A stretch of 30,353 nt of DNA, from assembly GCA_016844295.1 (NCBI GenBank), contig JAENIV010000008.1:1-30353 (forward strand), read 5' to 3'. This document shows positions 6,706 to 18,635 of the stretch, piece after piece. A program made the position numbers and the translations under genes. How positions within the stretch are numbered: position 1 is the first letter of the stretch; every line of letters starts with the position of its first letter. Origin of the DNA: Candidatus Berkelbacteria bacterium. GTDB taxonomy: Bacteria; Patescibacteriota; UBA1384; UBA12157; JAENIV01. Under the pieces are notes generated by a model. It made no database searches. It saw only the letters and a list, made by a program, of their open reading frames with translations, and had not been told where the DNA came from.

Positions 6706-7842
6706 TTAGTTAGACTCATTTGATACGAGTCCCACTTTCATTTTAATAGAATTCCTTTGTAAACTCAAGAATGACCAAAATCCAACTGGGATTGGTATCC
6801 AAAATGAAATAAGTCTAAAAATTAACACCGCGGCTAAGGCAGTTGAGGCGGGAATCCCGAAACTTATGAAAATTAGGGACAAGGATGCTTCGGCAACCCC
6901 GAGTCCGCCAGGAATAAATGAGATTGTCGTCAGAATTCTTGTAATACAGTATGCAAAAATGACAATTGCCAAATTGGCATGAAAGCCAAAACCCAAAAAA
7001 GCAAAATACAAACAAAAAATATCTCCAAACCAAAAACATAAGGCTCCGATGATGGAATAAACTTGAAGTCTTGGGTTTTGGCTCAAAATATACGTTGCCT
7101 GATATACTTTATCAACGATCCCGGGAATGCCTGATTCTGGAAATCGTTTCAATTTTAAAAGATTGGTTATCTTATTTGCTAAAGAAATTAATTTCTTGGC
7201 CTTTGCCAGCAGCCGGTTTCTGTTGGTATAAAGAAAAATTAAATAAAAAAGCAAAGCAAAGCCGGCAAAATAAATCAGCCAAATTATTAATATTTTTGTC
7301 GGGCTGATCCCGGAGTTAGATGGTGAAAAAGCCGCCCCAATAAGATAAATTACTGCAAAAACAATCCATATTACCATAGTTCTGGCAATAAACATTAAAA
7401 TAATGTGAGATGTTCTAATGTTTTTAGCTTTATAAAAGTAATAATCAACTGCCGCTTCCCCAAAACTTGCCAATGGTAGAAATTGTACTGAAAAAGAATC
7501 CATGATTGAAATTTTTAAAACATCATAAAAACTTAATTTATCATTTGTCATTCTCAGAACCGTCCGCGTAAGAATAGTCGAACCAATATAAAAAAATGAT
7601 TCGGCCGCGACGGCTAAAATAAAAGCCCAATATTTTATTCTTTCCAGAAGTATAAGAGTTTCCTTAAGCCCGATAATATTTGGAATTAGAATCCATATCC
7701 CAATACCAATCAATAGAATAATAATGACTCTTTTAGCCGAAAAAAAATTGTTTTCAAGTTTAAGGCCCGGGTTTTTAGAGCCCGCGTTATATTTAGAAAT
7801 ATTTTCTACTTGACTATTAGTCTGTGGATCGTGATTTTGCAT
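6706..7842 (-). CDS. Flippase-like / lysylphosphatidylglycerol synthase TM-domain protein (UPF0104-like)
   Basis: Multiple TM helices; signature FIPGGLGVAEASL...ALAAVLIFRLISFWIP. Confidence 0.85.
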   Translation of the reverse strand: MQNHDPQTNSQVENISKYNAGSKNPGLKLENNFFSAKRVIIILLIGIGIWILIPNIIGLKETLILLERIKYWAFILAVAAESFFYIGSTILTRTVLRMTNDKLSFYDVLKISIMDSFSVQFLPLASFGEAAVDYYFYKAKNIRTSHIILMFIARTMVIWIVFAVIYLIGAAFSPSNSGISPTKILIIWLIYFAGFALLFYLIFLYTNRNRLLAKAKKLISLANKITNLLKLKRFPESGIPGIVDKVYQATYILSQNPRLQVYSIIGALCFWFGDIFCLYFAFLGFGFHANLAIVIFAYCITRILTTISFIPGGLGVAEASLSLIFISFGIPASTALAAVLIFRLISFWIPIPVGFWSFLSLQRNSIKMKVGLVSNESN

Positions 7843-7848
7843 AAAGGT

Positions 7849-10071
7849 TTAAATAGATAATTCATAAATACTTTTATCATTTAGAACCCAGATTTTTCGT
7901 GCTTTTTGAGAAACGACAAAATCGGTAATTTTATTAAATTCATCTGGTAAAGCATATTGATGAATAAATTGACCTTCTTTGTCGAATTCTAAGATGCGTT
8001 TTTGATCTCCATCAAGTACATATATTGAAGGCGTGTCCGAGTCAGTAAATATTTTAATTGGTTTTGCTATTGTACTATATGGACTAGGAATATTTTTTAA
8101 ACTAAAATCCTGTTTCTTGCTTTTTTGTATTTTAATTATTTGACCATCATTTTTTAATACATAAATATTCCCATCAACAGCTAGAGAATTCGATTGTCTT
8201 AAATTTACGTTCACGGTCGAAATATATTCTTCCCCTTTTTGAAATTCAGTATTATTAGAAGAATGTTTATATATTTGACCAACAATTCCATCAAGAAGAT
8301 ATAAACTCCCGACATAACCGGCAATAGCGTTGGAGGTTTCCCATCTACCATCTGAAGAAATTTTTGTCTGTTCGATTTTTTTAGTACTAACATCGAGGGT
8401 AAATACATTTTGATTATTAGTATATAAGTATATAGAGATGTCCGAGCGTGTCCCGGTAATAAAATTGCCTTTATTTTTAGGGATAGAAGCAATTTTTGAA
8501 GGAGTACCACTAACAATATTACCTTCATAAATGTCAGAGTCAGAAATAATATATGCTTGCCCGGAAACAACATACAAACCTTTACCTGTATCAGGAATTG
8601 TAATACTTGGTTTCAAATCGATATATCTTGTAGTCGCGGTTAATTTATCTAATTCTGACTGGGAATTTTTAATGGTATTTTTAGCATCGTTGGCAACAAA
8701 TGAGTTATCAACAATCGTTCGGGCTTTATCTATCGAAAAAGCAAACTTTTCTTTAGCTTGCTCTTGGTTTCCTGTTGAAAGTAGATTTTTACCGTCATTG
8801 CCCGCGGCAATGGCCTCATTAAGAATTTTTTGGGCTTGGAAATTACCAACATTATTGCCACGATTTTTGATTACCACCGTAACAATAATAATTAAAATAA
8901 GAAGAATCGCACCGAGAATATAAAGATATTTACGTCTTTTGCGATCTCTCGCAGAATCGACAATCCAACTTATTAAATTCAGAATTTTTATCCAGATCCA
9001 ATTTAGTATTTTTAAAATTATTGTCCAAGTATTTCTTCTGGTAATTTTCTTTTCTTTTTCTTGATTATAGTAATGGACGTATTCAGGAGAATATTTGACT
9101 TCCTCATCTTTTAGAAGACTATCATCTCGTTCCCCAGATAAAAATTCTTTATGAAAATTATCACCCCCTTCTTTAGCTGCAAAAGGTTGCGCATTAATAG
9201 GTATAGAAGGTTGACTCTTTTTTCGTTTAGATATTCTTTCTTTTATCTTTAGATATGAATTATTAAAAAATTTGCCCAAACTTTGGTTAACCGGTATAAG
9301 GATTTTCCCAATTTGCCCAAAAACTTTCCACGCTGATTCAGATGATTTATCAAGATAAAAAACATTCCCTAAATTTTCTGTAATTGGTTTACTAGATACA
9401 TCTTCTTTAAGGCCTAGACGGATAATAATTAAATTTACGTTTTTAACTTTATCTTTACGTAATAATTTAATAATCTGCATGGCTGCTAAGGACGGTGGGT
9501 TCATGCTAATAATTTGACGTAGTGCCTCTAAAGATAAGTGTTCGAATAACTCTTTGTTTGAAAGCAATATACTATCTTGTTCTTTAAGTTCACCAGAAAT
9601 TATATTAGTAAAAGTTTTTAAAGGATGTGGTTCAACGGGCCCTGTCATTCCTTCTGTCAAGTGATTAATTTTACCATCTCTGAAAATAAATACCTCAGAT
9701 TGTCCGCTTGTGGATAAGTGAAGACTATTACCGACAATAACAGAGGTTACCCCGTTTAGATTGCCGATCCAATCAGTTTCCCCATTTTGAGTAATTTGGG
9801 CTAAATCCTCATTGACTTTTTTTAACGATTCTTCAAAATTTACAAGATCTGAAGTGCTTCCGCCTCGATAATAGTACTTAACAAAATTGTTTATTACCAT
9901 TTGGCCAACTTGCGCGGTCGGAAACCACGGAGAAAGCATTTCAATACAAGTAAAAATCTCGCCCATACCTTTTTGGGTAAGATTATCGCTTGTGTGGTGC
10001 TGACAGGTGAGGAATCTATCAGGAAGTTTTCCAGAATTAGTTATTCTCGCAAATTGGATTTCGTATGCCAT
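7849..10071 (-). CDS. Large membrane-anchored protein: degenerate PP2C-like N-terminal domain, TM helix, C-terminal beta-propeller-like region
   Basis: N-terminal GELKEQDSILLSNKELF resembles the PP2C/SpoIIE fold. TM segment YLYILGAILLILIIIVTVVI. C-terminal repeats such as LAVDGNIYVL, IYVLDGDQKRILEFDKEGQF resemble NHL-type blades. Confidence 0.65.
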   Translation of the reverse strand: MAYEIQFARITNSGKLPDRFLTCQHHTSDNLTQKGMGEIFTCIEMLSPWFPTAQVGQMVINNFVKYYYRGGSTSDLVNFEESLKKVNEDLAQITQNGETDWIGNLNGVTSVIVGNSLHLSTSGQSEVFIFRDGKINHLTEGMTGPVEPHPLKTFTNIISGELKEQDSILLSNKELFEHLSLEALRQIISMNPPSLAAMQIIKLLRKDKVKNVNLIIIRLGLKEDVSSKPITENLGNVFYLDKSSESAWKVFGQIGKILIPVNQSLGKFFNNSYLKIKERISKRKKSQPSIPINAQPFAAKEGGDNFHKEFLSGERDDSLLKDEEVKYSPEYVHYYNQEKEKKITRRNTWTIILKILNWIWIKILNLISWIVDSARDRKRRKYLYILGAILLILIIIVTVVIKNRGNNVGNFQAQKILNEAIAAGNDGKNLLSTGNQEQAKEKFAFSIDKARTIVDNSFVANDAKNTIKNSQSELDKLTATTRYIDLKPSITIPDTGKGLYVVSGQAYIISDSDIYEGNIVSGTPSKIASIPKNKGNFITGTRSDISIYLYTNNQNVFTLDVSTKKIEQTKISSDGRWETSNAIAGYVGSLYLLDGIVGQIYKHSSNNTEFQKGEEYISTVNVNLRQSNSLAVDGNIYVLKNDGQIIKIQKSKKQDFSLKNIPSPYSTIAKPIKIFTDSDTPSIYVLDGDQKRILEFDKEGQFIHQYALPDEFNKITDFVVSQKARKIWVLNDKSIYELSI

Positions 10072-10170
10072 AGTTTAGATTCTGATAAATCTTTTCAATT
10101 AACTCCAAAAAAAATCAATGTAGGTAAGTACCTAATGTATTTATTATACATTATCTTGGTCTAAAGCAAA

Positions 10171-10323
10171 TCGGGATGGCGAGACTCGAACTCGCGACCT
10201 TCCGCCCAAATTCGGGGCGACTGGATTCGAACCAGCGGTCTCCAGACCCCCAGCCTGGCGCTTTACCAACTAAGCTACGCCCCGAATTTTTGGCGGACAC
10301 ACTACCAACTGTGCTACATCCCG
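10171..10323 (-). ncRNA. Outer tRNA-Pro-like shell whose anticodon loop is replaced by a complete tRNA-Pro(GGG). 5' half 10323-10293, 3' half 10205-10171
   Basis: Acceptor CGGGATG/CATCCCG + A73; D-arm GCAC-AGTTGGTA-GTGT; anticodon stem TCCGC/GCGGA; variable loop AGGTC; T-arm GCGAG-TTCGAGT-CTCGC. Confidence 0.85.
10212..10284 (-). tRNA. tRNA-Pro(GGG), nested; CCA not encoded
   Basis: 73-nt cloverleaf: CGGGGCG/CGCCCCG, GCTT-AGTTGGTA-AAGC, CCAGG-CTGGGGG-TCTGG, GCTGG-TTCGAAT-CCAGT, A73. Confidence 0.95.
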
Positions 10324-10329
10324 TAAATA

Positions 10330-10962
10330 TTAAAGATTTAATAGGGCAGAAAGCATATCGGGCCTTGCTGTGATAAAAATAAAAAAATTAAAAATAACCT
10401 TGGTTTCGATTAAAGAAATTAGGCCGGTAAAAAATATCACGAAGACCAAGATAAACATGCCAAATTGCTGCAAAAACAAATATATTTGCTCTGGTAAGAA
10501 AAGACTTAAAATTTTAGAACCATCCAGCGGAGGTATGGGCAGAAAGTTAAATACCATTAATAAAAGGTTAAAAAATACTAAAGCACTGATAAATAAACTG
10601 ACTATCTCAGGCATCGGTACAAGGCGAAGGATAAGTCCGAATACAACAGCCAAGATTAAATTGCTCATCGGTCCAGCCAAAGATACTGTCAGATTATCTA
10701 ATTTTGGATTGGCAAAATTATTCGGATTGACAATTACTGGTTTACCCCAACCAAAACCCACGAGTAATAAAAATATTGACCCATAAATGTCTAGGTGCGC
10801 AAGGGGGTTCAGCGACATTCTCCCCATTAATTTAGATGTTGAATCACCGAAACTATTGGCAGCCCAAGAATGGGCAAATTCGTGAAAAGTAATGGCGACT
10901 AATAGCGACAAAATGATGGCGGTAAAGTGTAGCGGTGATGAAAATAGTAATAATATAATCAT
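10330..10962 (-). CDS. Site-2 protease family (peptidase M50); start reassigned to ATG at 10962
   Basis: HEFAH (HExxH), NPLAHLD, GFGWGKPV, AGPMSN, FNFLPIPPLDG. The longer ORF-track start (11145) overlaps rpmB on the opposite strand. Confidence 0.9.
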   Translation of the reverse strand: MIILLLFSSPLHFTAIILSLLVAITFHEFAHSWAANSFGDSTSKLMGRMSLNPLAHLDIYGSIFLLLVGFGWGKPVIVNPNNFANPKLDNLTVSLAGPMSNLILAVVFGLILRLVPMPEIVSLFISALVFFNLLLMVFNFLPIPPLDGSKILSLFLPEQIYLFLQQFGMFILVFVIFFTGLISLIETKVIFNFFIFITARPDMLSALLNL

Positions 10963-10974
10963 GGTATATGTTAA

Positions 10975-11003
10975 TTGACGTATCTGCTTTTGTATGATAC
11001 CAT
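10975..11003 (+). promoter_or_regulatory. Putative sigma70 promoter for rpmB
   Basis: TTGACG (10975-10980), 17-nt spacer, TACCAT (10998-11003) preceded by TGn. Confidence 0.55.
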
Positions 11004-11037
11004 ATAAAAGTATCAAGATAAAACTAAAGAGGTTAAT

Positions 11038-11205
11038 ATGACTACTTGCCAAGTTTGCGGTCGCAGTCCAAGAGTAGGTTATAATCGGCCAAACTCTCAA
11101 CATCGTACAAAGAGAAAAATTTATCCAAACATCCAAAAAAATCATGGCAAAAATATTTGCATGGGTTGTTTAAGATCTGCGAATCGCAATACTTCTAAAA
11201 ACTAA
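11038..11205 (+). CDS. rpmB: 50S ribosomal protein bL28, zinc-binding (C+) form; 55 aa, absent from the ORF track
   Basis: Manual translation MTTCQVCGRSPRVGYNRPNSQHRTKRKIYPNIQKNHGKNICMGCLRSANRNTSKN*. CxxC...CxxC plus the TKR..PN motif; AAGAGG RBS upstream. Confidence 0.92.
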   Translation: MTTCQVCGRSPRVGYNRPNSQHRTKRKIYPNIQKNHGKNICMGCLRSANRNTSKN

Positions 11206-11210
11206 AAATA

Positions 11211-11546
11211 TTACTTAGCAGGTTCTTCGGGAGTAGTTTCTTCTTGGGGTTTAATTTGTTCAGGGCTCTTGTCCGTTTGGCGGGCTTTTGTAAAACAATC
11301 CGCACAAAGAACATCATCAGGATTCCTTGGTTGAAACGGGACTTCGCCTTCTTTGCCGCAAGTTTTGCAAATTATATTGTGCATTTGCCGATCAGTAGTT
11401 TTTTCTTTGCGATTTTTACGACAATCCGGGCATCTTCCTGGAGAATTCTGAAGGCCTTTATCAGCATAAAATTGCTGTTCTCCTGCTGACCAAATAAATT
11501 CCTTGGAACACTCTTTACAAGCTAATTTTTTGTCTTCAAACACCAT
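11211..11546 (-). CDS. Zinc-ribbon domain protein (two CxxC-x17-CxxC-type modules)
   Basis: MVFEDKKLACKECSKEFIWSAGEQQFYADKGLQNSPGRCPDCR...CKTCG...VPFQP...VLCADCF. Confidence 0.85.
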   Translation of the reverse strand: MVFEDKKLACKECSKEFIWSAGEQQFYADKGLQNSPGRCPDCRKNRKEKTTDRQMHNIICKTCGKEGEVPFQPRNPDDVLCADCFTKARQTDKSPEQIKPQEETTPEEPAK

Positions 11547-11655
11547 AAATTTCCATAAGTGATTATTTTAGGGTCGACCGAAAGAATATAAATTCTTTTC
11601 CTCTATTTTATTTTAAAAGAATTTTAAACTTTTGTAAATCTTTGATAATTTAACA

Positions 11656-11755
11656 ACTGTTCACAGAACAAAAACCGTGGTATGATTCAAGCGGAAAAGT
11701 TATCTTCGATTCATCCACGGCCCGAAGGTCTTGATATTGCGTTTGAAAATGAAAG
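11656..11755 (+). repeat. Dispersed intergenic element, copy C, directly upstream of holB
   Basis: Aligns to copy A without gaps over 100 nt (67 identities by hand). Confidence 0.72.
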
Positions 11756-11764
11756 AATAAATCT

Positions 11765-12418
11765 ATGAATTTATTAAGGACAATCAATATTCAAATAAAA
11801 AATTCCCGCATAGGTCATGCCTATCTTGTAATCGGCGATTTTGATGTAGAAGAAATTAGACACGTTCTAAAAATTCAAAAACCAGATTTTTGGCAATTGA
11901 GAGAGAATCCAATTAAAATTGTTTTTATTAGAGAATTAATCCATTGGATTTCTTTAAAGCCCCATAGTTCTCCATTTAAATTAGCCGTTATTTGGAATTT
12001 AGAAAATATTACTCTTGAGGCCGCGAATGCATTACTTAAGGTGCTCGAAGAACCACCCAAAAATACAATTTTTATTTTAAATTCTCAAAAAACAGAGAAA
12101 ATATTACCGACGATCATATCTCGCTGCCAAATAATTAGGTTTAAAAAAAATATTCAAAAGGAAACGTCTGAGGAATTTATGTCCCTTGAGGTTCTAAAGA
12201 AAAAGTCTATCAAGGAGCGTTTTGATTTTGCGTCGAAAATAGCGGAATCAAATAATTTAAGTGATATTTTAAATTCGTGGGAGAATAATCTGCGTAATGA
12301 TCTTTTATGTGGTACTGATGTCCGACATATTTTGAAGGAGATCTCTTCTACGAGGAGTTTACTTTCGACGAATACTTCTGTAAAATTACTCTTAGAAAAC
12401 CTTTTTCTTAATATATGA
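11765..12418 (+). CDS. holB: DNA polymerase III delta-prime subunit-like protein (short form)
   Basis: HAYL, AANALLKVLEEPP, ILPTIISRC motifs. Confidence 0.88.
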   Translation: MNLLRTINIQIKNSRIGHAYLVIGDFDVEEIRHVLKIQKPDFWQLRENPIKIVFIRELIHWISLKPHSSPFKLAVIWNLENITLEAANALLKVLEEPPKNTIFILNSQKTEKILPTIISRCQIIRFKKNIQKETSEEFMSLEVLKKKSIKERFDFASKIAESNNLSDILNSWENNLRNDLLCGTDVRHILKEISSTRSLLSTNTSVKLLLENLFLNI

Positions 12419-12454
12419 TACGAAAAAGATTGATATAAACTGTTAAAATAAAAT

Positions 12455-13162
12455 ATGGAAGAATTGTTTGTTAAATTAGCGACAACTGGAAAAATATTTG
12501 CATATAAAACAGATTTAAAGTTAAATTTTGGTGATTTGGTATTGATCGAAATTGAACAAATTATCGAAGAAGGAACGATAGTTAAAAAAGGTGAAGGTCT
12601 AACAAATATTGAAGAAGGCCAAGGAACAATTTTAAGAATATTTTCTACTGAAGACCGGGCCAAGCGAACGCAACTTAAAAAAACGGCTAGATCATTAATA
12701 GAAGAAACACAAAGAAAGGTAAATCGTCACAGTTTAAGCATGAAAATTTTAGACGCCGATATCAGCTTTGACGAAAAGAAATTAACATTTTATTTTTCTG
12801 CCGACGGCCGAGTTGACTTCAGAAGTCTAGTTTCTGATTTAGTCAAAAGTTATAATAAATTGATTCGTCTTCAGCAAGTCGGTTCACGCGACGAAGCCAA
12901 ATATTTTGGGGGAATAGGCAAATGCGGTCGGGAACTTTGTTGCACGAAGTTTTTAACTAATCTCGAGAGTTGTTGCGGGAAACTTATGTGTTGTCTGGCT
13001 TATGAGGCTGATACATATAATGATTTGAAGAAAAAAATGCCTAAGATTGGAAGTCAATTCAATTCTTCATCTGGTGCGGGCGTGGTTGTTGGACATAATA
13101 TTTTAGAAAGTAAAGTCCTGTTAGAAACAAAAGATGGGAAAAAAATTGAGGTTTTAATATGA
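12455..13162 (+). CDS. PSP1-domain protein (YaaT/RicT-like)
   Basis: FYFSADGRVDFRSLV, IRLQQVGSRDEAK, GGIGKCGRELCC, CGKLMCCLAYE. Sits downstream of holB as in the known holB-yaaT synteny. Confidence 0.9.
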   Translation: MEELFVKLATTGKIFAYKTDLKLNFGDLVLIEIEQIIEEGTIVKKGEGLTNIEEGQGTILRIFSTEDRAKRTQLKKTARSLIEETQRKVNRHSLSMKILDADISFDEKKLTFYFSADGRVDFRSLVSDLVKSYNKLIRLQQVGSRDEAKYFGGIGKCGRELCCTKFLTNLESCCGKLMCCLAYEADTYNDLKKKMPKIGSQFNSSSGAGVVVGHNILESKVLLETKDGKKIEVLI

Positions 13163-13656
13163 TCGCCAATATTAGTATAATCGCCGCTGTTGTAATTATC
13201 TTGGTTATTTTAGGGCGAAGATTGCCCGATGCGCGAAAAAAATTTCAAGAAACTCGCCAAGTTTCGAGTGAAGAAATCACTTTATATGGGCTGATCGCTC
13301 AAGCTGACGAGGCTTTTGACAAAAATAATTTTGAAGAAGCTGAAAATTTATATGTTAAGGTTGCGACTCAAGATCCGGATAACCCCAAAATTTATTCAAG
13401 GTTAGGGGCAATTTATCTCGAACAAAAAAATTACTATGACGCAAAAGACGCTTTTGCTCAAGCGGTTAAATTAGAACCCGATCTGGCATCAAGGCATATA
13501 AATTTAGGGTTATCATATATGGGTCTAAAAGATTATTATAAAGCCAGTGAGTCTTTCCGAAACGCTTTGAAACTTGATCCTAAAAACAATAAATATGAAA
13601 GACTTCTAGACAAAACGCTTAAACTTCAAGACAAAGAGAAAAGAAAAAATAAGTGA
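13159..13656 (+). CDS. Membrane-anchored TPR-repeat protein
   Basis: N-terminal TM helix followed by TPR-like repeats (YSRLGAIYLEQKNYYDAKDAFAQAVKLEP; HINLGLSYMGLKDYYKASESFRNALKLDP). Confidence 0.85.
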   Translation: MIANISIIAAVVIILVILGRRLPDARKKFQETRQVSSEEITLYGLIAQADEAFDKNNFEEAENLYVKVATQDPDNPKIYSRLGAIYLEQKNYYDAKDAFAQAVKLEPDLASRHINLGLSYMGLKDYYKASESFRNALKLDPKNNKYERLLDKTLKLQDKEKRKNK

Positions 13657-13746
13657 CTACTGCAGGCCAAAGACCATGGTATATGCAGGGTAAATCTTTC
13701 TTCGCTTAATCCCTATCCACTGCCGAAGGTAAGGCACGCTGATTGA
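13656..13746 (+). repeat. Diverged copy D of the dispersed intergenic element
   Basis: Shares CCATGGTAT, GGTAAA-x-xTTTCTTCGCTT-x-ATCC and ATCCAC...CCGAAGGT with copies A-C. The 3' block is degenerate. Confidence 0.55.
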
Positions 13747-13762
13747 GCTCCATTTTTTAATC

Positions 13763-13791
13763 TTGAGAAAAATAGATAAAAATGTTAAAAT
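13763..13791 (+). promoter_or_regulatory. Putative sigma70 promoter for the Tyr-shell/tRNA-Thr/rpmG transcript
   Basis: TTGAGA (13763-13768), 17-nt spacer, TAAAAT (13786-13791) with TGn extension. Confidence 0.7.
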
Positions 13792-13799
13792 AAATTCAT

Positions 13800-13999
13800 G
13801 CCGGGTTAGCCCCGGTTTGATAATCAAACTAGGTAAACTCCGCAGTCTGCCGAGATAGCGAAGTGGCCAAACGCATCTGACTGTAAATCAGACGCCCTTG
13901 TGGCTTCGGGGGTTCGAATCCCTCTCTCGGCACCAATCCTGGCGGAGTTCATCCCGGAACTAAGTTGAGGGAGGAGTGCAAATCTCTCGCTCGGCACCA
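13800..13999 (+). ncRNA. Outer tRNA-Tyr-like shell enclosing tRNA-Tyr(GTA)
   Basis: Acceptor GCCGGGT/GCTCGGC + A + CCA. Clamp helix AACTCCGC (13836-13843)/GCGGAGTT (13942-13949). Variable-arm hairpin GTTC-ATCCCG-GAAC. Bulged T-arm GAGGAG-TGCAAAT-CTCTC. D region replaced by palindrome GGTTTGAT-A-ATCAAACT. Confidence 0.7.
13849..13935 (+). tRNA. tRNA-Tyr(GTA), nested; CCA encoded
   Basis: GCCGAGA/TCTCGGC, TCTGA-CTGTAAA-TCAGA, long variable arm, GGGGG-TTCGAAT-CCCTC, A-CCA. Confidence 0.96.
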
Positions 14000-14006
14000 C
14001 CAGAGT

Positions 14007-14081
14007 GCCCAGGTAGCTCAGTGGTAGAGCAATTCCATGGTAAGGAATAGGCCAGGGGTTCAAATCCCCTCCTGGGCTCCA
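14007..14081 (+). tRNA. tRNA-Thr(GGT); ordinary, no shell
   Basis: GCCCAGG/CCTGGGC, GCTC-AGTGGTA-GAGC, ATTCC-ATGGTAA-GGAAT, AGGGG-TTCAAAT-CCCCT, T-CCA. Confidence 0.96.
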
Positions 14082-14103
14082 TATTATTAAAAAGAAAGGT
14101 AAA

Positions 14104-14286
14104 ATGGCAAAAGCAAAGGCAGTGTTAATACATCTAGAGTGTACTGAATGTAAAAGTAAAAACTATACTACGGCTAAAAACCCCACAGAAAACAAAGAAA
14201 AACTTAGATTAAATAAGTTTTGTAAAAAATGCCGCAAACATACTCCTCACAAAGAGGTAAAAATTTCTAAAGCCAAGAAGAAATAA
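14104..14286 (+). CDS. rpmG: 50S ribosomal protein bL33, zinc-binding (C+) form
   Basis: LECTECKSKNYTTAKN...KLRLNKFCKKCRKHTPHKE. Confidence 0.96.
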   Translation: MAKAKAVLIHLECTECKSKNYTTAKNPTENKEKLRLNKFCKKCRKHTPHKEVKISKAKKK

Positions 14287-14299
14287 CCAAACAAATTAT

Positions 14300-14328
14300 T
14301 ATACACGCATCGAATGGGCAGATATAAT
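14300..14328 (+). promoter_or_regulatory. Putative sigma70 promoter for the Trp shell/tRNA-Trp
   Basis: TATACA (14300-14305), 17-nt spacer, TATAAT (14323-14328). Confidence 0.5.
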
Positions 14329-14352
14329 CATGAATGCTGATAATATTTTCTA

Positions 14353-14569
14353 GGGGGTGTGCGAATGCTGGCAACCTTCAATGGGTGCTGGCAAAGCCAG
14401 TACAACGGTCTGGATGCCGGTCTTAACTCATCCTGCTGGGAGCTTAGTTAAGTGGTATAACGGAGGTCTCCAAAACCTCGGTCGGGGGTTCGATTCCCTC
14501 AGCTCCTGCCAAAATGAGTTAAGACGCGCAAAACCGTAGACCGGGGTTCGATTCCCTGCACCCCTGCCA
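14353..14569 (+). ncRNA. Outer tRNA-Trp-like shell enclosing tRNA-Trp(CCA)
   Basis: Acceptor GGGGGTG/CACCCCT + G + CCA. Anticodon stem ACGGT (14405-14409)/ACCGT (14533-14537). T-arm CGGGG-TTCGATT-CCCTG. D-like hairpin GTGCTGGC-AAA-GCCAGTAC. Perfect 12-bp inverted repeat 14420-14431/14514-14525 around the inner tRNA. Confidence 0.8.
14438..14511 (+). tRNA. tRNA-Trp(CCA), nested; CCA end encoded
   Basis: GGGAGCT/AGCTCCT, GTTA-AGTGGTA-TAAC, GAGGT-CTCCAAA-ACCTC, GGGGG-TTCGATT-CCCTC, G-CCA. Confidence 0.96.
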
Positions 14570-18194: not shown

Positions 18195-18635
18195 TGTCAT
18201 TCTGAGGCGTAGCCGAAGAATCTCCCATGAATATGGGTTGGTATGAGTAAAAAATATTACGTTTATATCGCTACGAATAAATCCAACACTCTTTATACTG
18301 GTGTAACTAACGATATACAAAGAAGAATGTATGAACATAAATTTAAGTTTATCAAGGGATTTACAGAAAAATATAACATTAATAAATTAGTATATTTTCA
18401 GGAATTTAATAATCCGAATGAAGCAATTACAGTTGAAAAGAAGATAAAAGGTTGGACAAGAGCAAAAAAGATAAACTTAATAAAAAGTTTGAATCCCACC
18501 TTTAAGGACTTACTTGAGTCATGTTGAACAATCGTGTAATTCTGGAGCATTGTCATGTTGAGCGAAGCGAAACATCTCTGGCGAATGCCAGTTCTCAAAC
18601 AAGTTGAGAGATCCTTCGTTTCACTCAGGATGACA
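18195..18635 (+). mobile_element. GIY-YIG nuclease cassette bounded by REP-like repeats (three copies)
   Basis: TGTCATTCTGAGGCGTAGCCGAAGAATCTC (18195-18224) and TGTCATGTTGAGCGAAGCGAAACATCTC (18551-18578) in forward orientation; inverted copy GAGATCCTTCGTTTCACTCAGGATGACA (18608-18635). Confidence 0.7.
18243..18527 (+). CDS. Small GIY-YIG nuclease family protein
   Basis: YYVYI...LYTGVTNDIQRRMYEHK...FTEKYNINKLVYFQEF...AITVEKKIKGWTRAKKINLI. Confidence 0.92.
   Translation: MSKKYYVYIATNKSNTLYTGVTNDIQRRMYEHKFKFIKGFTEKYNINKLVYFQEFNNPNEAITVEKKIKGWTRAKKINLIKSLNPTFKDLLESC

Follow-up and report, generated by a model that had tools for sequence, protein, structure and literature searches.

The closest described counterparts of the nested genes reported here are the free-standing GIY-YIG homing endonucleases of tRNA gene clusters, such as SegB of phage T4 (PMC2330249), and the intronless homing of T4 mobE (PMC2790892). 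As in those cases, a small GIY-YIG gene lies amid tRNA genes or abuts them, break repair would pass on the nuclease gene along with adjoining DNA, and the flanks would be co-converted with variable tract ends. Unlike SegB and mobE, the host is a cellular CPR genome, the putative nucleases of ~90 aa consist of the catalytic domain only, with no recognisable DNA-binding domain, many copies have lost the nuclease, and what is carried is an entire gene that replaces the target and comes to lie within it, the two halves of the target remaining as a shell. In archaea, a recombinase element has left a 5' tRNA fragment behind (PMC3293823). Integrative elements that target tRNA genes (with tyrosine-integrase att sites and a replacement 3' part) likewise restore the function that they disrupt and leave tRNA fragments as scars; however, an integrase duplicates only one side and leaves a large element behind, whereas here both halves flank an insert of ~100 nt, no integrase is found near the nests, and insertion is into the D, anticodon and T loops.

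Group I introns occur in the anticodon loops of bacterial tRNA genes. Archaea have bulge-helix-bulge introns, with transposition between tRNAs, and split and tri-split tRNAs (PMC10714607, PMC4033280). The present nests share with these the interruption of tRNA genes at loops, inserts that appear to act as mobile DNA, and leader-trailer pairing that unites the halves, but the nest regions have no Rfam match to a group I core, no bulge-helix-bulge motif is visible by eye at the junctions, an archaeal-type splicing endonuclease (EndA) and RtcB were not found in a genome search, the insert is a complete tRNA, and the outer gene is probably not restored. CPR bacteria also carry homing-endonuclease-bearing insertions in their rRNA genes (PMC11270868), which are comparable as small selfish nuclease-encoding inserts in essential structural RNA genes of the same lineage; those are mostly self-splicing introns and the host RNA is restored, whereas here the host gene is abandoned and replaced from within. 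No description of such tRNA-in-tRNA nesting was found in the literature.

Nested tRNA genes of the window and the genome

The window is a stretch of 30,353 nucleotides from a CPR-type genome (G000; 876 kb in 91 contigs, 44 tRNA genes), in which tRNA genes were called with ARAGORN and Rfam (Rfam scores in bits) and compared with relatives (G002, G003, G006 and others), metagenome contigs (L224, L225 and L237) and sequencing runs (X3 and X4). An earlier note had described three tRNA genes of one cluster, Pro, Tyr and Trp, as lying between halves of a second tRNA of the same isotype, and each shell indeed matches intact tRNAs of relatives; the nesting is therefore upheld, and it extends well beyond three loci, the pattern being genome-wide. 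Full nesting affects at least nine of the 44 tRNA genes, and about five others have one-sided fragments or a flanking helix. A scan for shells returned nine long ones, compared with none in a reversed control and 1, 0 and 0 in three Markov controls. The amino acid is always common to inner tRNA and shell, and the shells are, judged by their resemblance to intact same-isotype tRNAs of relatives, former working tRNA genes. The features of the window are as follows:

10171-10195, minus strand: Pro shell outer 3' part (T arm, acceptor 3' strand, A73, no CCA)
10196-10298, minus strand: Pro cassette (arm TCCGCC, linker, inner tRNA-Pro(GGG) at 10212-10284, linker, arm GGCGGA, AGGTC)
10299-10323, minus strand: Pro shell outer 5' part (acceptor 5' strand CGGGATG and D arm)
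13763-13791, plus strand: promoter-like site (TTGAGA-17-TAAAAT with TG) just upstream of the Tyr shell, by consensus match only
13800-13848, plus strand: Tyr shell 5' part, homologous to the start of G008 tRNA-Tyr and to the Tyr nest in G003
13849-13935, plus strand: inner working tRNA-Tyr(GTA), by ARAGORN and Rfam (63.5 bits)
13936-13999, plus strand: Tyr shell 3' part, homologous to intact G008 tRNA-Tyr
14007-14081, plus strand: tRNA-Thr(GGT), by ARAGORN and Rfam, not nested in G000
14300-14328, plus strand: promoter-like site upstream of the Trp shell, by consensus match only
14353-14404, plus strand: Trp shell outer 5' part (acceptor strand 14353-14359 and a disordered D region)
14405-14537, plus strand: Trp cassette-like block, supported by clamp against shuffles, run X3 and ARAGORN on joined flanks
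14538-14569, plus strand: Trp shell outer 3' part (T arm 14542-14558, acceptor 14559-14565, G73, CCA)
18243-18527, plus strand: small GIY-YIG ORF (Pfam PF01541, E = 1.8e-15) with no adjoining tRNA

The inner Pro gene (called at 10211-10285, minus strand; ARAGORN and Rfam, 67.3 bits) is the sole Pro(GGG) gene of the genome. When this inner tRNA is deleted in silico, the joined flanks are called a tRNA by ARAGORN in 30 trim combinations, and the acceptor, D and T arms of the shell match the intact tRNA-Pro(GGG) of G006 (3' part, 30/30). The Trp block consists of a stem ACGGT, CT, a linker, a clamp arm (14420-14431), the inner tRNA-Trp(CCA) (14438-14511, called by ARAGORN and Rfam), a second clamp arm (14514-14525), CAAA and the stem ACCGT. 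Its shell has an acceptor that pairs 7/7 (14353-14359 with 14559-14565) and shares the GGGGGTG type with the intact tRNA-Trp genes of G059, G027 and G021, and the stretch 14526-14569, which includes the outer 3' part, is identical to the G059 gene at 38 of 42 positions. The 5' part of this shell measures 85 nt, ~50 nt of them extra, with an internal hairpin and a repeat in the D region, and the joined flanks are called a tRNA only when the trims, within a narrow range, stay close to the removal of 14412-14527. An additional helix had been said to clamp each inner tRNA: the perfect 12-bp Trp clamp was matched in none of 200 shuffles and the 8-bp Tyr clamp was equalled or exceeded in two of 200, but the Pro arms TCCGCC/GGCGGA alone do not beat chance (p = 0.16).

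In the Tyr nest, where the inner gene is the only Tyr gene of G000, the 5' part of the shell comprises an acceptor strand (13800-13806), a palindromic plug (~13810-13834) where the D arm would be, and a clamp arm AACTCCGC (13836-13843); the linker GGTAAACTCCG is common to the Tyr nests of G000 and G003. The 3' part comprises a clamp arm GCGGAGTT (13942-13949), a decayed anticodon and variable region, a T arm (13972-13988, loop TGCAAAT), and an acceptor strand (13989-13995) followed by A73 and CCA. The D and anticodon arms are lost, and the joined flanks are not called a tRNA by ARAGORN. Globally aligned to the intact G008 tRNA-Tyr, the 3' part is identical at 41 of 61 positions, with two differences in the final 27 bases (T arm, acceptor strand and ACCA); the Tyr shell is considered real because its acceptor and unusual T loop are those of this functional gene. 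In G003, the 3' half of the Tyr shell has three mismatches to the working tRNA-Tyr of G008, a member of another genus, from the anticodon to position 73, whereas the inner Tyr genes of G000 and G003 are 13% different. This contrast counts against the replacement reading given below; it could reflect a separate, recent invasion or a constraint acting on the shell.

The inner tRNAs had all been placed in the anticodon loop of their shells. For Pro and Trp this siting needs modification: the supposed shell anticodon stem moves with the insert and belongs to it, so that the shell anticodon loop is absent. For Tyr it fails, since in a comparison with the homologous G003 nest the inner gene falls between positions ~11 and 26 of the shell. 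Of the three, the Pro and Trp nests are proposed to be young versions without a nuclease, and the Tyr nest an older, eroded version. In run X4 the Tyr shell/inner junction is present with six differences over a 112-nt stretch, and a contig of run X3 joins position 13932 to the Thr gene (14006) by three other bases, indicating that the X3 genome is without the Tyr 3' shell.

Proposed cassette transfer and small GIY-YIG genes

The nests are probably the footprint of DNA-level replacement of tRNA genes by a compact cassette linked to GIY-YIG nucleases. This develops one option of the earlier note, a mobility scar, which gains support from the contrast in identity between cassette and shell, from presence/absence polymorphism, from layered fragments and from the link to GIY-YIG ORFs. 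The 103-nt Pro cassette (arms, linkers and inner tRNA) is identical at 102 positions between G000 and the syntenic contig L224, whereas the outer shell is identical at 19/25 (5' part) and 18/25 (3' part) positions, 72-76%, which is close to the genome background (coding flanks 66-74%, other tRNAs 76-91%). Similarly, the stretch 14404-14539 at the Trp nest is conserved in run X3 with three differences and its flanks are not alignable at 85%. The presence of nests differs between close relatives: Pro(GGG) is nested in G000, G002 and L224 and plain in G003, G006, G007, G014, G019 and G058. In L224, Tyr and Trp are plain and Thr is nested instead, flanked by a 5' fragment of 17 nt and by a decayed 3' part, so Thr, previously taken as a shell-free control, serves as such in G000 and not in this relative. 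The L224 Pro nest has an additional outer, hairpin-plugged layer on each side and a truncated GIY-YIG ORF ~75 nt upstream.

G000 holds 14 small GIY-YIG nuclease ORFs of 83-109 aa (one annotated start gives 42), nine of which have a tRNA within 130 nt (random mean 0.42, maximum 4 in 5000 trials), and in two nests the ORF follows the shell 5' part and precedes the inner tRNA. All five such ORFs of the complete genome G003 are at most 213 nt from a tRNA, as are 20 of the 30 top GIY-YIG hits in 30 genomes of the class at a distance of at most 151 nt. Six of these 20 loci have a fragment of the neighbouring tRNA that scores above every shuffle control, and two more are borderline. The order of 5' tRNA fragment, nuclease ORF and intact tRNA recurs at several loci and is confirmed by coordinates in L237. 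The three nests of the window have no nuclease gene inside or beside them; hence their connection to GIY-YIG genes is by analogy and via relatives.

The cassette would be a complete working tRNA gene between short inverted arms, with larger versions carrying a ~90-aa GIY-YIG ORF fused to the 5' end of the tRNA, and would land where a resident tRNA gene for the same amino acid encodes a loop (anticodon, D or T), splitting that gene into halves that stay behind as the shell. First, the nuclease may cut cassette-free tRNA genes. The break would then be repaired from a cassette-bearing copy, conserved tRNA segments providing homology, so that the anticodon arm and insert are copied in and the outer arms of the recipient stay, as the identity pattern suggests. 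Next, one transcript from the resident promoter would span the inner tRNA and the shell halves on either side; the inner tRNA would be freed by RNase P and 3' trimming, and the arms may keep its folding separate from that of the look-alike shell. Finally, shells decay and gain GC-rich hairpin plugs in their loops, and further rounds add layers, as observed. Because the tRNA brought by the cassette is the essential, single-copy one that is disrupted, the cell would survive invasion, and the isotype match would be explained. Standard homing is not known to create duplications or inverted arms and so does not account for the clamps and hairpin plugs, which counts against this reading, as does the lack of a recognisable DNA-binding domain by which the ~90-aa proteins might find tRNA genes.

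Alternative readings: shell RNA, hairpin elements or local rearrangement

Another explanation, which we consider unlikely, is that the shell is a working RNA device whose halves persist as a two-piece tRNA-like RNA, with cloverleaf and clamp under selection; it could help processing as a scaffold, divert toxins that cut tRNA (the decoy option of the earlier note), or be charged as an adaptor that has no anticodon. The minimum free energy fold of the Pro nest contains both cloverleaves and, formed by clamp and inner acceptor, an uninterrupted helix of 12 bp that stacks on the shell anticodon stem, and perfect clamps of 8-12 bp are confined to nests. Promoter-like sites occur just upstream of shell 5' ends and none precedes the inner tRNAs, which makes it probable that one transcript includes the shell halves as leader and trailer. 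To this extent the earlier proposal of a processed precursor is plausible, but its RtcB-type religation is unsupported, because RtcB and the splicing endonuclease were not found, which also weighs against a shell device, and because the joined halves lack a normal anticodon loop. Both Ala shells retain G3.U70, and many plugs have four-base loops, several like stable RNA tetraloops; these could hint at a role at the RNA level. All stem differences among the Pro shells of G000, G002 and L224 are compensated, as are those between the Met shells of G000 and G003. Cassette transfer into already diverged residents (72-76% versus 99%) explains this compensation: shells would have been independent working genes before invasion, so compensated pairs that predate it are no evidence of shell function or maintenance, and the earlier suggestion that decay without compensation would identify inert scars must be applied with care. 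Nests are also gained and lost among close relatives, the older Tyr shell lacks D and anticodon arms, four of the six differences in the X4 stretch fall in its 5' half, CCA is retained haphazardly, and the anticodon loop is absent from most shells.

It is also doubtful, to much the same degree, that the mobile agents are the GC-rich palindromic elements themselves, inserting into the parts of tRNA genes that encode loops, with a tRNA or nuclease gene as occasional cargo, the GIY-YIG ORFs being passengers or independent parasites of the same sites and not the driver. The arms CCTGCCCGC...GGCAGGCGGG occur in the D loop of two shells, around tRNA-Arg in one and around 21 nt in the other; D-loop plugs of the form CTAT-stem-loop-stem-ATCAG share one position in Met, Phe and Ala shells, with covarying stems; all three loops of the L224 outer layer are plugged; motifs including CTTGCCCCG and CCCCGTTAAATAA recur at different tRNA loci; and the nests of the window have arms and no nuclease. 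However, no transposase-like gene is associated with the elements (a single tyrosine recombinase is on another contig), arm sequences vary by locus, no target-site duplications are evident, and the plug motif is not dispersed in the genome beyond tRNA shells.

Replacement by cassette also accounts for the GIY-YIG association, which is left without explanation if the nests arose locally, by slippage, template switching or successive partial tandem duplications with no lateral movement. Such an origin would suit the invariable match of amino acid, the 29-nt direct repeat that flanks the Ala(TGC) insert on both sides, and perfect clamps made by quasi-palindrome correction, but it is very improbable, as inner tRNA and shell are not each other's closest relatives and come from different allele lineages, each the sole working gene in other genomes, and as the cassette is 99% identical between genomes that are ~70% identical overall. 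Assembly error is unlikely, and chimerism of strain variants in this metagenome-assembled genome, for which its 91 contigs and the repeat-like nature of tRNA genes might speak, is scarcely credible, given that an independent 2121-nt Logan contig from a different study spans 10000-10814 across the Pro nest with 0 differences, that the Tyr shell/inner junction and the Trp clamp-inner-clamp block are found in other runs, and that homologous nests are present in G002, G003, L224 and L225.

Nested tRNA genes of the window and their shells

The genome to which the window belongs as contig C23 is of the CPR type (876 kb, 40% GC, 91 contigs). Four tRNA genes of the window are called by both ARAGORN and Rfam:

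tRNA genes of the window (ARAGORN and Rfam)
10211-10285, minus strand, tRNA-Pro(GGG)
13849-13935, tRNA-Tyr
14007-14081, tRNA-Thr(GGT)
14438-14511, tRNA-Trp

The Pro, Tyr and Trp genes, which are single-copy in this genome, each lie between the 5' and 3' halves of a second tRNA gene (the shell) for the same amino acid, forming a nest; the inner tRNA with its linkers and short inverted arms (the clamp) is termed the cassette. This nesting of three tRNA genes in isotype-matched shells, claimed in the earlier note, is borne out, in that the Pro and Trp flanks rescan as tRNA and all three shells match intact tRNAs of relatives. When each tRNA was removed in silico, additional trims being varied over a grid, and the joined flanks were rescanned with ARAGORN, a tRNA was called in 30 trim combinations for Pro and in 22 for Trp, including a set equal to removal of 14412-14527; the Tyr flanks gave no tRNA call at any trim, and the Thr flanks gave only artefacts from the adjoining Tyr gene. 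Exact-fit trims at Pro produced non-Pro or irregular anticodons, trimming 9 nt off the 5' flank produced a Pro(TGG) reading in a shortened tRNA of 69 nt, and the anticodon of the rejoined Trp shell is GCA, not CCA. None of the Pro, Trp and Tyr shells regains, on removal of the insert, the full cloverleaf and 7-nt anticodon loop of a working tRNA. ARAGORN in intron mode reported no shell, a search of the whole genome with RF00005 returned three partial matches only, and Rfam scans at loose E-values are unable to reveal shells because they mask overlapping tRNA matches of lower score.

Nests exist at loop positions, but the placement in the anticodon loop that had been proposed for all three inner genes does not extend to Tyr. 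In the homologous Tyr nest of G003 (a complete genome from the same family), the anticodon-stem strand of the shell is located 3' of the inner gene, and thus the inner tRNA replaces the D-arm region (positions ~11 to 26) of the shell.

Neither chance nor assembly accounts readily for these structures. A scan for long shells, defined as a T arm and 3' acceptor strand preceded at a distance of 96-450 nt by a 5' acceptor strand that matches and the start of a D arm, found nine in the genome versus none in a reversed control and one, none and none in three Markov-shuffled controls. Perfect leader/trailer helices of 8-12 bp occur at nests only: the 12-bp helix of Trp was reached by 0 of 200 shuffles and the 8-bp helix of Tyr by 2 of 200, whereas the 6-bp helix of Pro is not significant alone. 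The nested junctions, for which the earlier note had sought confirmation in reads, are supported by public data: the region is present in two runs from different studies, with one contig of 2121 nt spanning 10000-10814 with 0 differences, and the shell/inner junction of Tyr and the clamp-inner-clamp block of Trp are present in further runs. A search for RNA runs that cover the locus found none.

The shells are former working genes, each matching an intact tRNA of its own isotype in a relative. The Pro shell shares its acceptor, D and T arms with the plain tRNA-Pro(GGG) of G006 (30/30 for the 3' part); the Tyr shell has the acceptor and unusual T loop (TGCAAAT) of the sole tRNA-Tyr of G008; and the Trp shell agrees in its 3' part with the tRNA-Trp of G059 at 38/42 positions, its GGGGGTG type of acceptor being found also in G021, G024 and G027. 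The 3' half of the Tyr shell of G003 is almost identical to the working gene of another genus. The inner genes match plain tRNAs of further, different relatives, and therefore the isotype match is real and due to descent.

Six additional nested tRNAs were found in the genome: Met, Arg(GCG), Pro(CGG), Phe, Ala(CGC) and Ala(TGC). Both halves of the shell are present at every nest; at Asp, Val(GAC), Val(TAC), Ser(TGA) and probably Arg(TCG) there is a fragment on one side only or a helix that flanks the gene. The insert of the Arg(GCG) nest (contig C21) is in the D loop of a shell that retains its GCG anticodon arm. In G003, Met, Ile(TAT) and Tyr are nested, and related arrangements are found in four other relatives (G050, G011, G007 and G009). 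BLAST of the Trp nest against 60 relatives found no second Trp nest, matching only the inner tRNA and intact tRNA-Trp genes that resemble the shell, and the Trp-junction pattern had zero matches in metagenome contigs; a search of genome contigs with a degenerate Pro-junction pattern was discarded as unspecific, having matched more than 120 unrelated genomes. The anticodon TAT (Ile), unusual for bacteria, is carried by a tRNA at 2780-2853 of contig C74 and by one at 489026-489099 of G003, where it is nested in a 247-nt shell. The tRNA-Thr(GGT) of G011 (contig L050, 2020-2270, minus strand) has an insert of ~196 nt directly 3' of the anticodon, and neither an inner tRNA nor an intact second copy is visible within the 3-kb locus; Rfam matches the insert to neither a group I intron nor any other family, and the locus is a dead gene or else contains an unrecognised intron.

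Separate histories of cassettes and shells

A metagenome contig (L224) that is syntenic with the window permits the histories of insert and shell to be compared. Coding DNA is 66-74% identical between the two, and the tRNA genes are 91% (Thr), 83% (Tyr) and 76% (Trp) identical, but the Pro cassette (10196-10298 in the window, which starts one base before TCCGCC, takes in the inner tRNA and its linkers, and ends with GGCGGA-AGGTC) is identical at 102 of 103 positions. The outer parts of the Pro shell are only 19/25 and 18/25 identical, with differences at six base pairs, all compensated; thus, insert and shell have different histories. On this evidence, the Pro cassette was recently transferred between lineages and entered resident tRNA-Pro genes that had still been functional as they diverged. 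The Trp block (14404-14539) follows the same pattern in public run X3. On L224, Tyr and Trp are plain and Thr is nested, and six other relatives have a plain Pro(GGG). Cassettes move laterally: filled and empty alleles coexist among relatives, and a cassette identical at 102 of 103 positions between flanks of ~70% identity has the non-vertical inheritance of a homing element.

The insertions also accumulate in layers. The Pro nest of L224 is itself enclosed by an older copy of tRNA-Pro, the 5' two-thirds of which lie upstream of a truncated GIY-YIG ORF and the T arm and acceptor strand downstream of the nest, with a GC-rich hairpin inserted in each of its D, anticodon and T loops. A related hairpin with covarying stems occupies the identical D-loop position in the Met, Phe and Ala(CGC) shells of the genome under study. 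Set against the shared terminal inverted repeats and target-site duplications of miniature inverted-repeat transposable elements, the inverted arms of nests measure 6-12 bp and differ in sequence at most loci; one pair, CCTGCCCGC...GGCAGGCGGG, is shared by the D loops of two shells, around tRNA-Arg(GCG) in one and around 21 nt only in the other, and no target-site duplication was seen at nests.

Several short sequences recur near these tRNA genes. The 12-mer CTGGCGGAGTTC lies 3' of tRNA-Tyr in the window (13939-13950) and 3' of tRNA-Trp on L224 (about 7660-7672), and 9-mers related to it are only mildly enriched genome-wide (9-11 observed versus 2-3 expected). The 13-nt leader CCCCGTTAAATAA, 4-6 nt upstream of the inner Val(TAC) and Ala(CGC) genes (contig C18, 25540-25640; contig C91, 2420-2445), could mark a cassette end common to both or serve as a -10-like element. 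GGCGGAGTT and CTGGCGGAG were rejected as a repeat family, being only mildly enriched in the genome.

GIY-YIG nuclease genes beside tRNA genes

The genome encodes 14 small GIY-YIG ORFs that consist of the catalytic domain only, and these cluster at tRNA genes: nine are within 130 nt of one, as compared with a mean of 0.42 and a maximum of 4 in 5000 trials of random placement. All five GIY-YIG ORFs of G003 are within 213 nt of a tRNA, as are 20 of 30 within 151 nt among the best matches from 30 different genomes of the class. At six of those 20 tRNA-adjacent loci, a fragment of the same tRNA outscores all shuffle controls; a further two loci are borderline. The order of 5' fragment, ORF and intact tRNA is found at locus L237 (coordinates checked) and likewise at Ala(TGC) and Asp in the genome under study. 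A GIY-YIG ORF is absent at the three nests of the window, present inside two other nests of the genome, and represented by a truncated copy beside the homologous Pro nest of L224. The five copies not linked to tRNA include a solo ORF of 94 aa in the window (18243-18527), within a type IV pilus gene cluster far from tRNAs. Several GIY-YIG ORFs run into the tRNA, with a TAG or TAA stop within its first 25 bases:

GIY-YIG ORFs that run into a downstream tRNA
Contig C85, 3338-3629
Contig C77, 4790-5114
Contig C58, 17361-17703
Contig C33, 694-1021

RNase P cleavage of such a transcript would take the stop codon away, and so nuclease expression could be coupled to pre-tRNA processing.

A candidate mobile element and its alternatives

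The preferred reading, held with moderate confidence, is a DNA-level process that replaces tRNA genes. The GIY-YIG nuclease would break tRNA genes that are free of the cassette, and repair from a cassette-bearing donor would bring in the anticodon arm together with the cargo; because each of these tRNAs is single-copy, survival would enforce the isotype match. A nested precursor would be transcribed from the resident promoter (promoter-like sites are found at 13763-13791 and 14300-14328, and none before the inner genes), the inner tRNA would be freed by RNase P and 3' trimming, and the arms would help it to fold apart from its look-alike shell. A bolder version, of low probability, is a new class of minimal selfish element of CPR bacteria, comprising a GIY-YIG nuclease of ~90 aa that would recognize the cruciform of a tRNA gene rather than its sequence, palindromic arms, and a replacement tRNA. 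It would home into loop-coding sites of any cognate tRNA gene and keep tRNA alleles throughout the radiation in constant lateral turnover, and the co-transcribed shell and arms may have been co-opted as a scaffold for folding or processing of the inner tRNA.

A shell with a function of its own is unlikely. Compensated changes between the shells of this genome and of a relative (G002) had been taken as selection on the shell, an argument now withdrawn since L224 shows separate histories of cassette and shell. Unlikely, too, is a palindromic element on which the nuclease is only a passenger. RtcB-type religation of the shell halves, an option raised in the earlier note, is unlikely as well: neither RtcB (PF01139) nor EndA (PF01974) was found in the genome, which is 92% complete, and rejoining would give abnormal loops; the junction helices, judged by eye, are continuous or have asymmetric internal loops, not the bulge-helix-bulge of archaeal-type splicing. 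A model of RNA ligation plus retrocopy was dropped, as RtcB and EndA were not found and all three reverse-transcriptase loci of the 876-kb genome (contig C50, 6127-6741; contig C18, 1851-2544; contig C41, 19827-20488; two of them in two pieces) are away from nests. Group I introns are disfavored by the inserts, which at 100-116 nt amount to a tRNA plus arms, and by Rfam scans of both regions at E <= 10, which found no group I core but only tRNAs and weak below-threshold matches to unrelated families; integrase attachment sites, at which only the 3' part of the tRNA is directly repeated, are disfavored by the presence of both a 5' and a 3' half at each nest and by the lack of a nearby tyrosine recombinase, the single PF00589 match being on contig C36.

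The closest known systems to the proposed element are the free-standing GIY-YIG homing endonucleases of phage tRNA clusters (SegB, PMC2330249), integrase elements that restore the targeted tRNA, the mobile tRNA introns and split tRNAs of archaea (PMC3293823, PMC10714607), and nuclease-bearing inserts in CPR rRNA genes (PMC11270868), but in none of these does the target come to enclose a whole replacement tRNA gene, and a full-text literature search found no description of tRNA-in-tRNA nests. If the proposal is correct, single-copy essential tRNA genes of the smallest bacterial genomes are unstable battlegrounds, with alleles repeatedly overwritten from outside, and every overwriting leaves a datable shell; together, such shells would be a natural fossil record of tRNA genes exchanged laterally. 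The proposal would also account for the fragments of tRNA and the GC hairpins that crowd the tRNA clusters of CPR bacteria and mislead annotation, add to the repertoire of homing elements a design in which the invader bears a spare copy of the gene that it destroys, and put forward for biochemical work a nuclease of very small size and unusual target. Pre-tRNAs would come from transcripts containing a second, look-alike tRNA body, which raises questions about the selectivity of RNase P. The sole RNase P RNA signal in the genome is a weak partial match (contig C82, 7464-7686; 21.8 bits versus a gathering score of 100), indicating an RNA that is either absent from the assembly or highly reduced or divergent.
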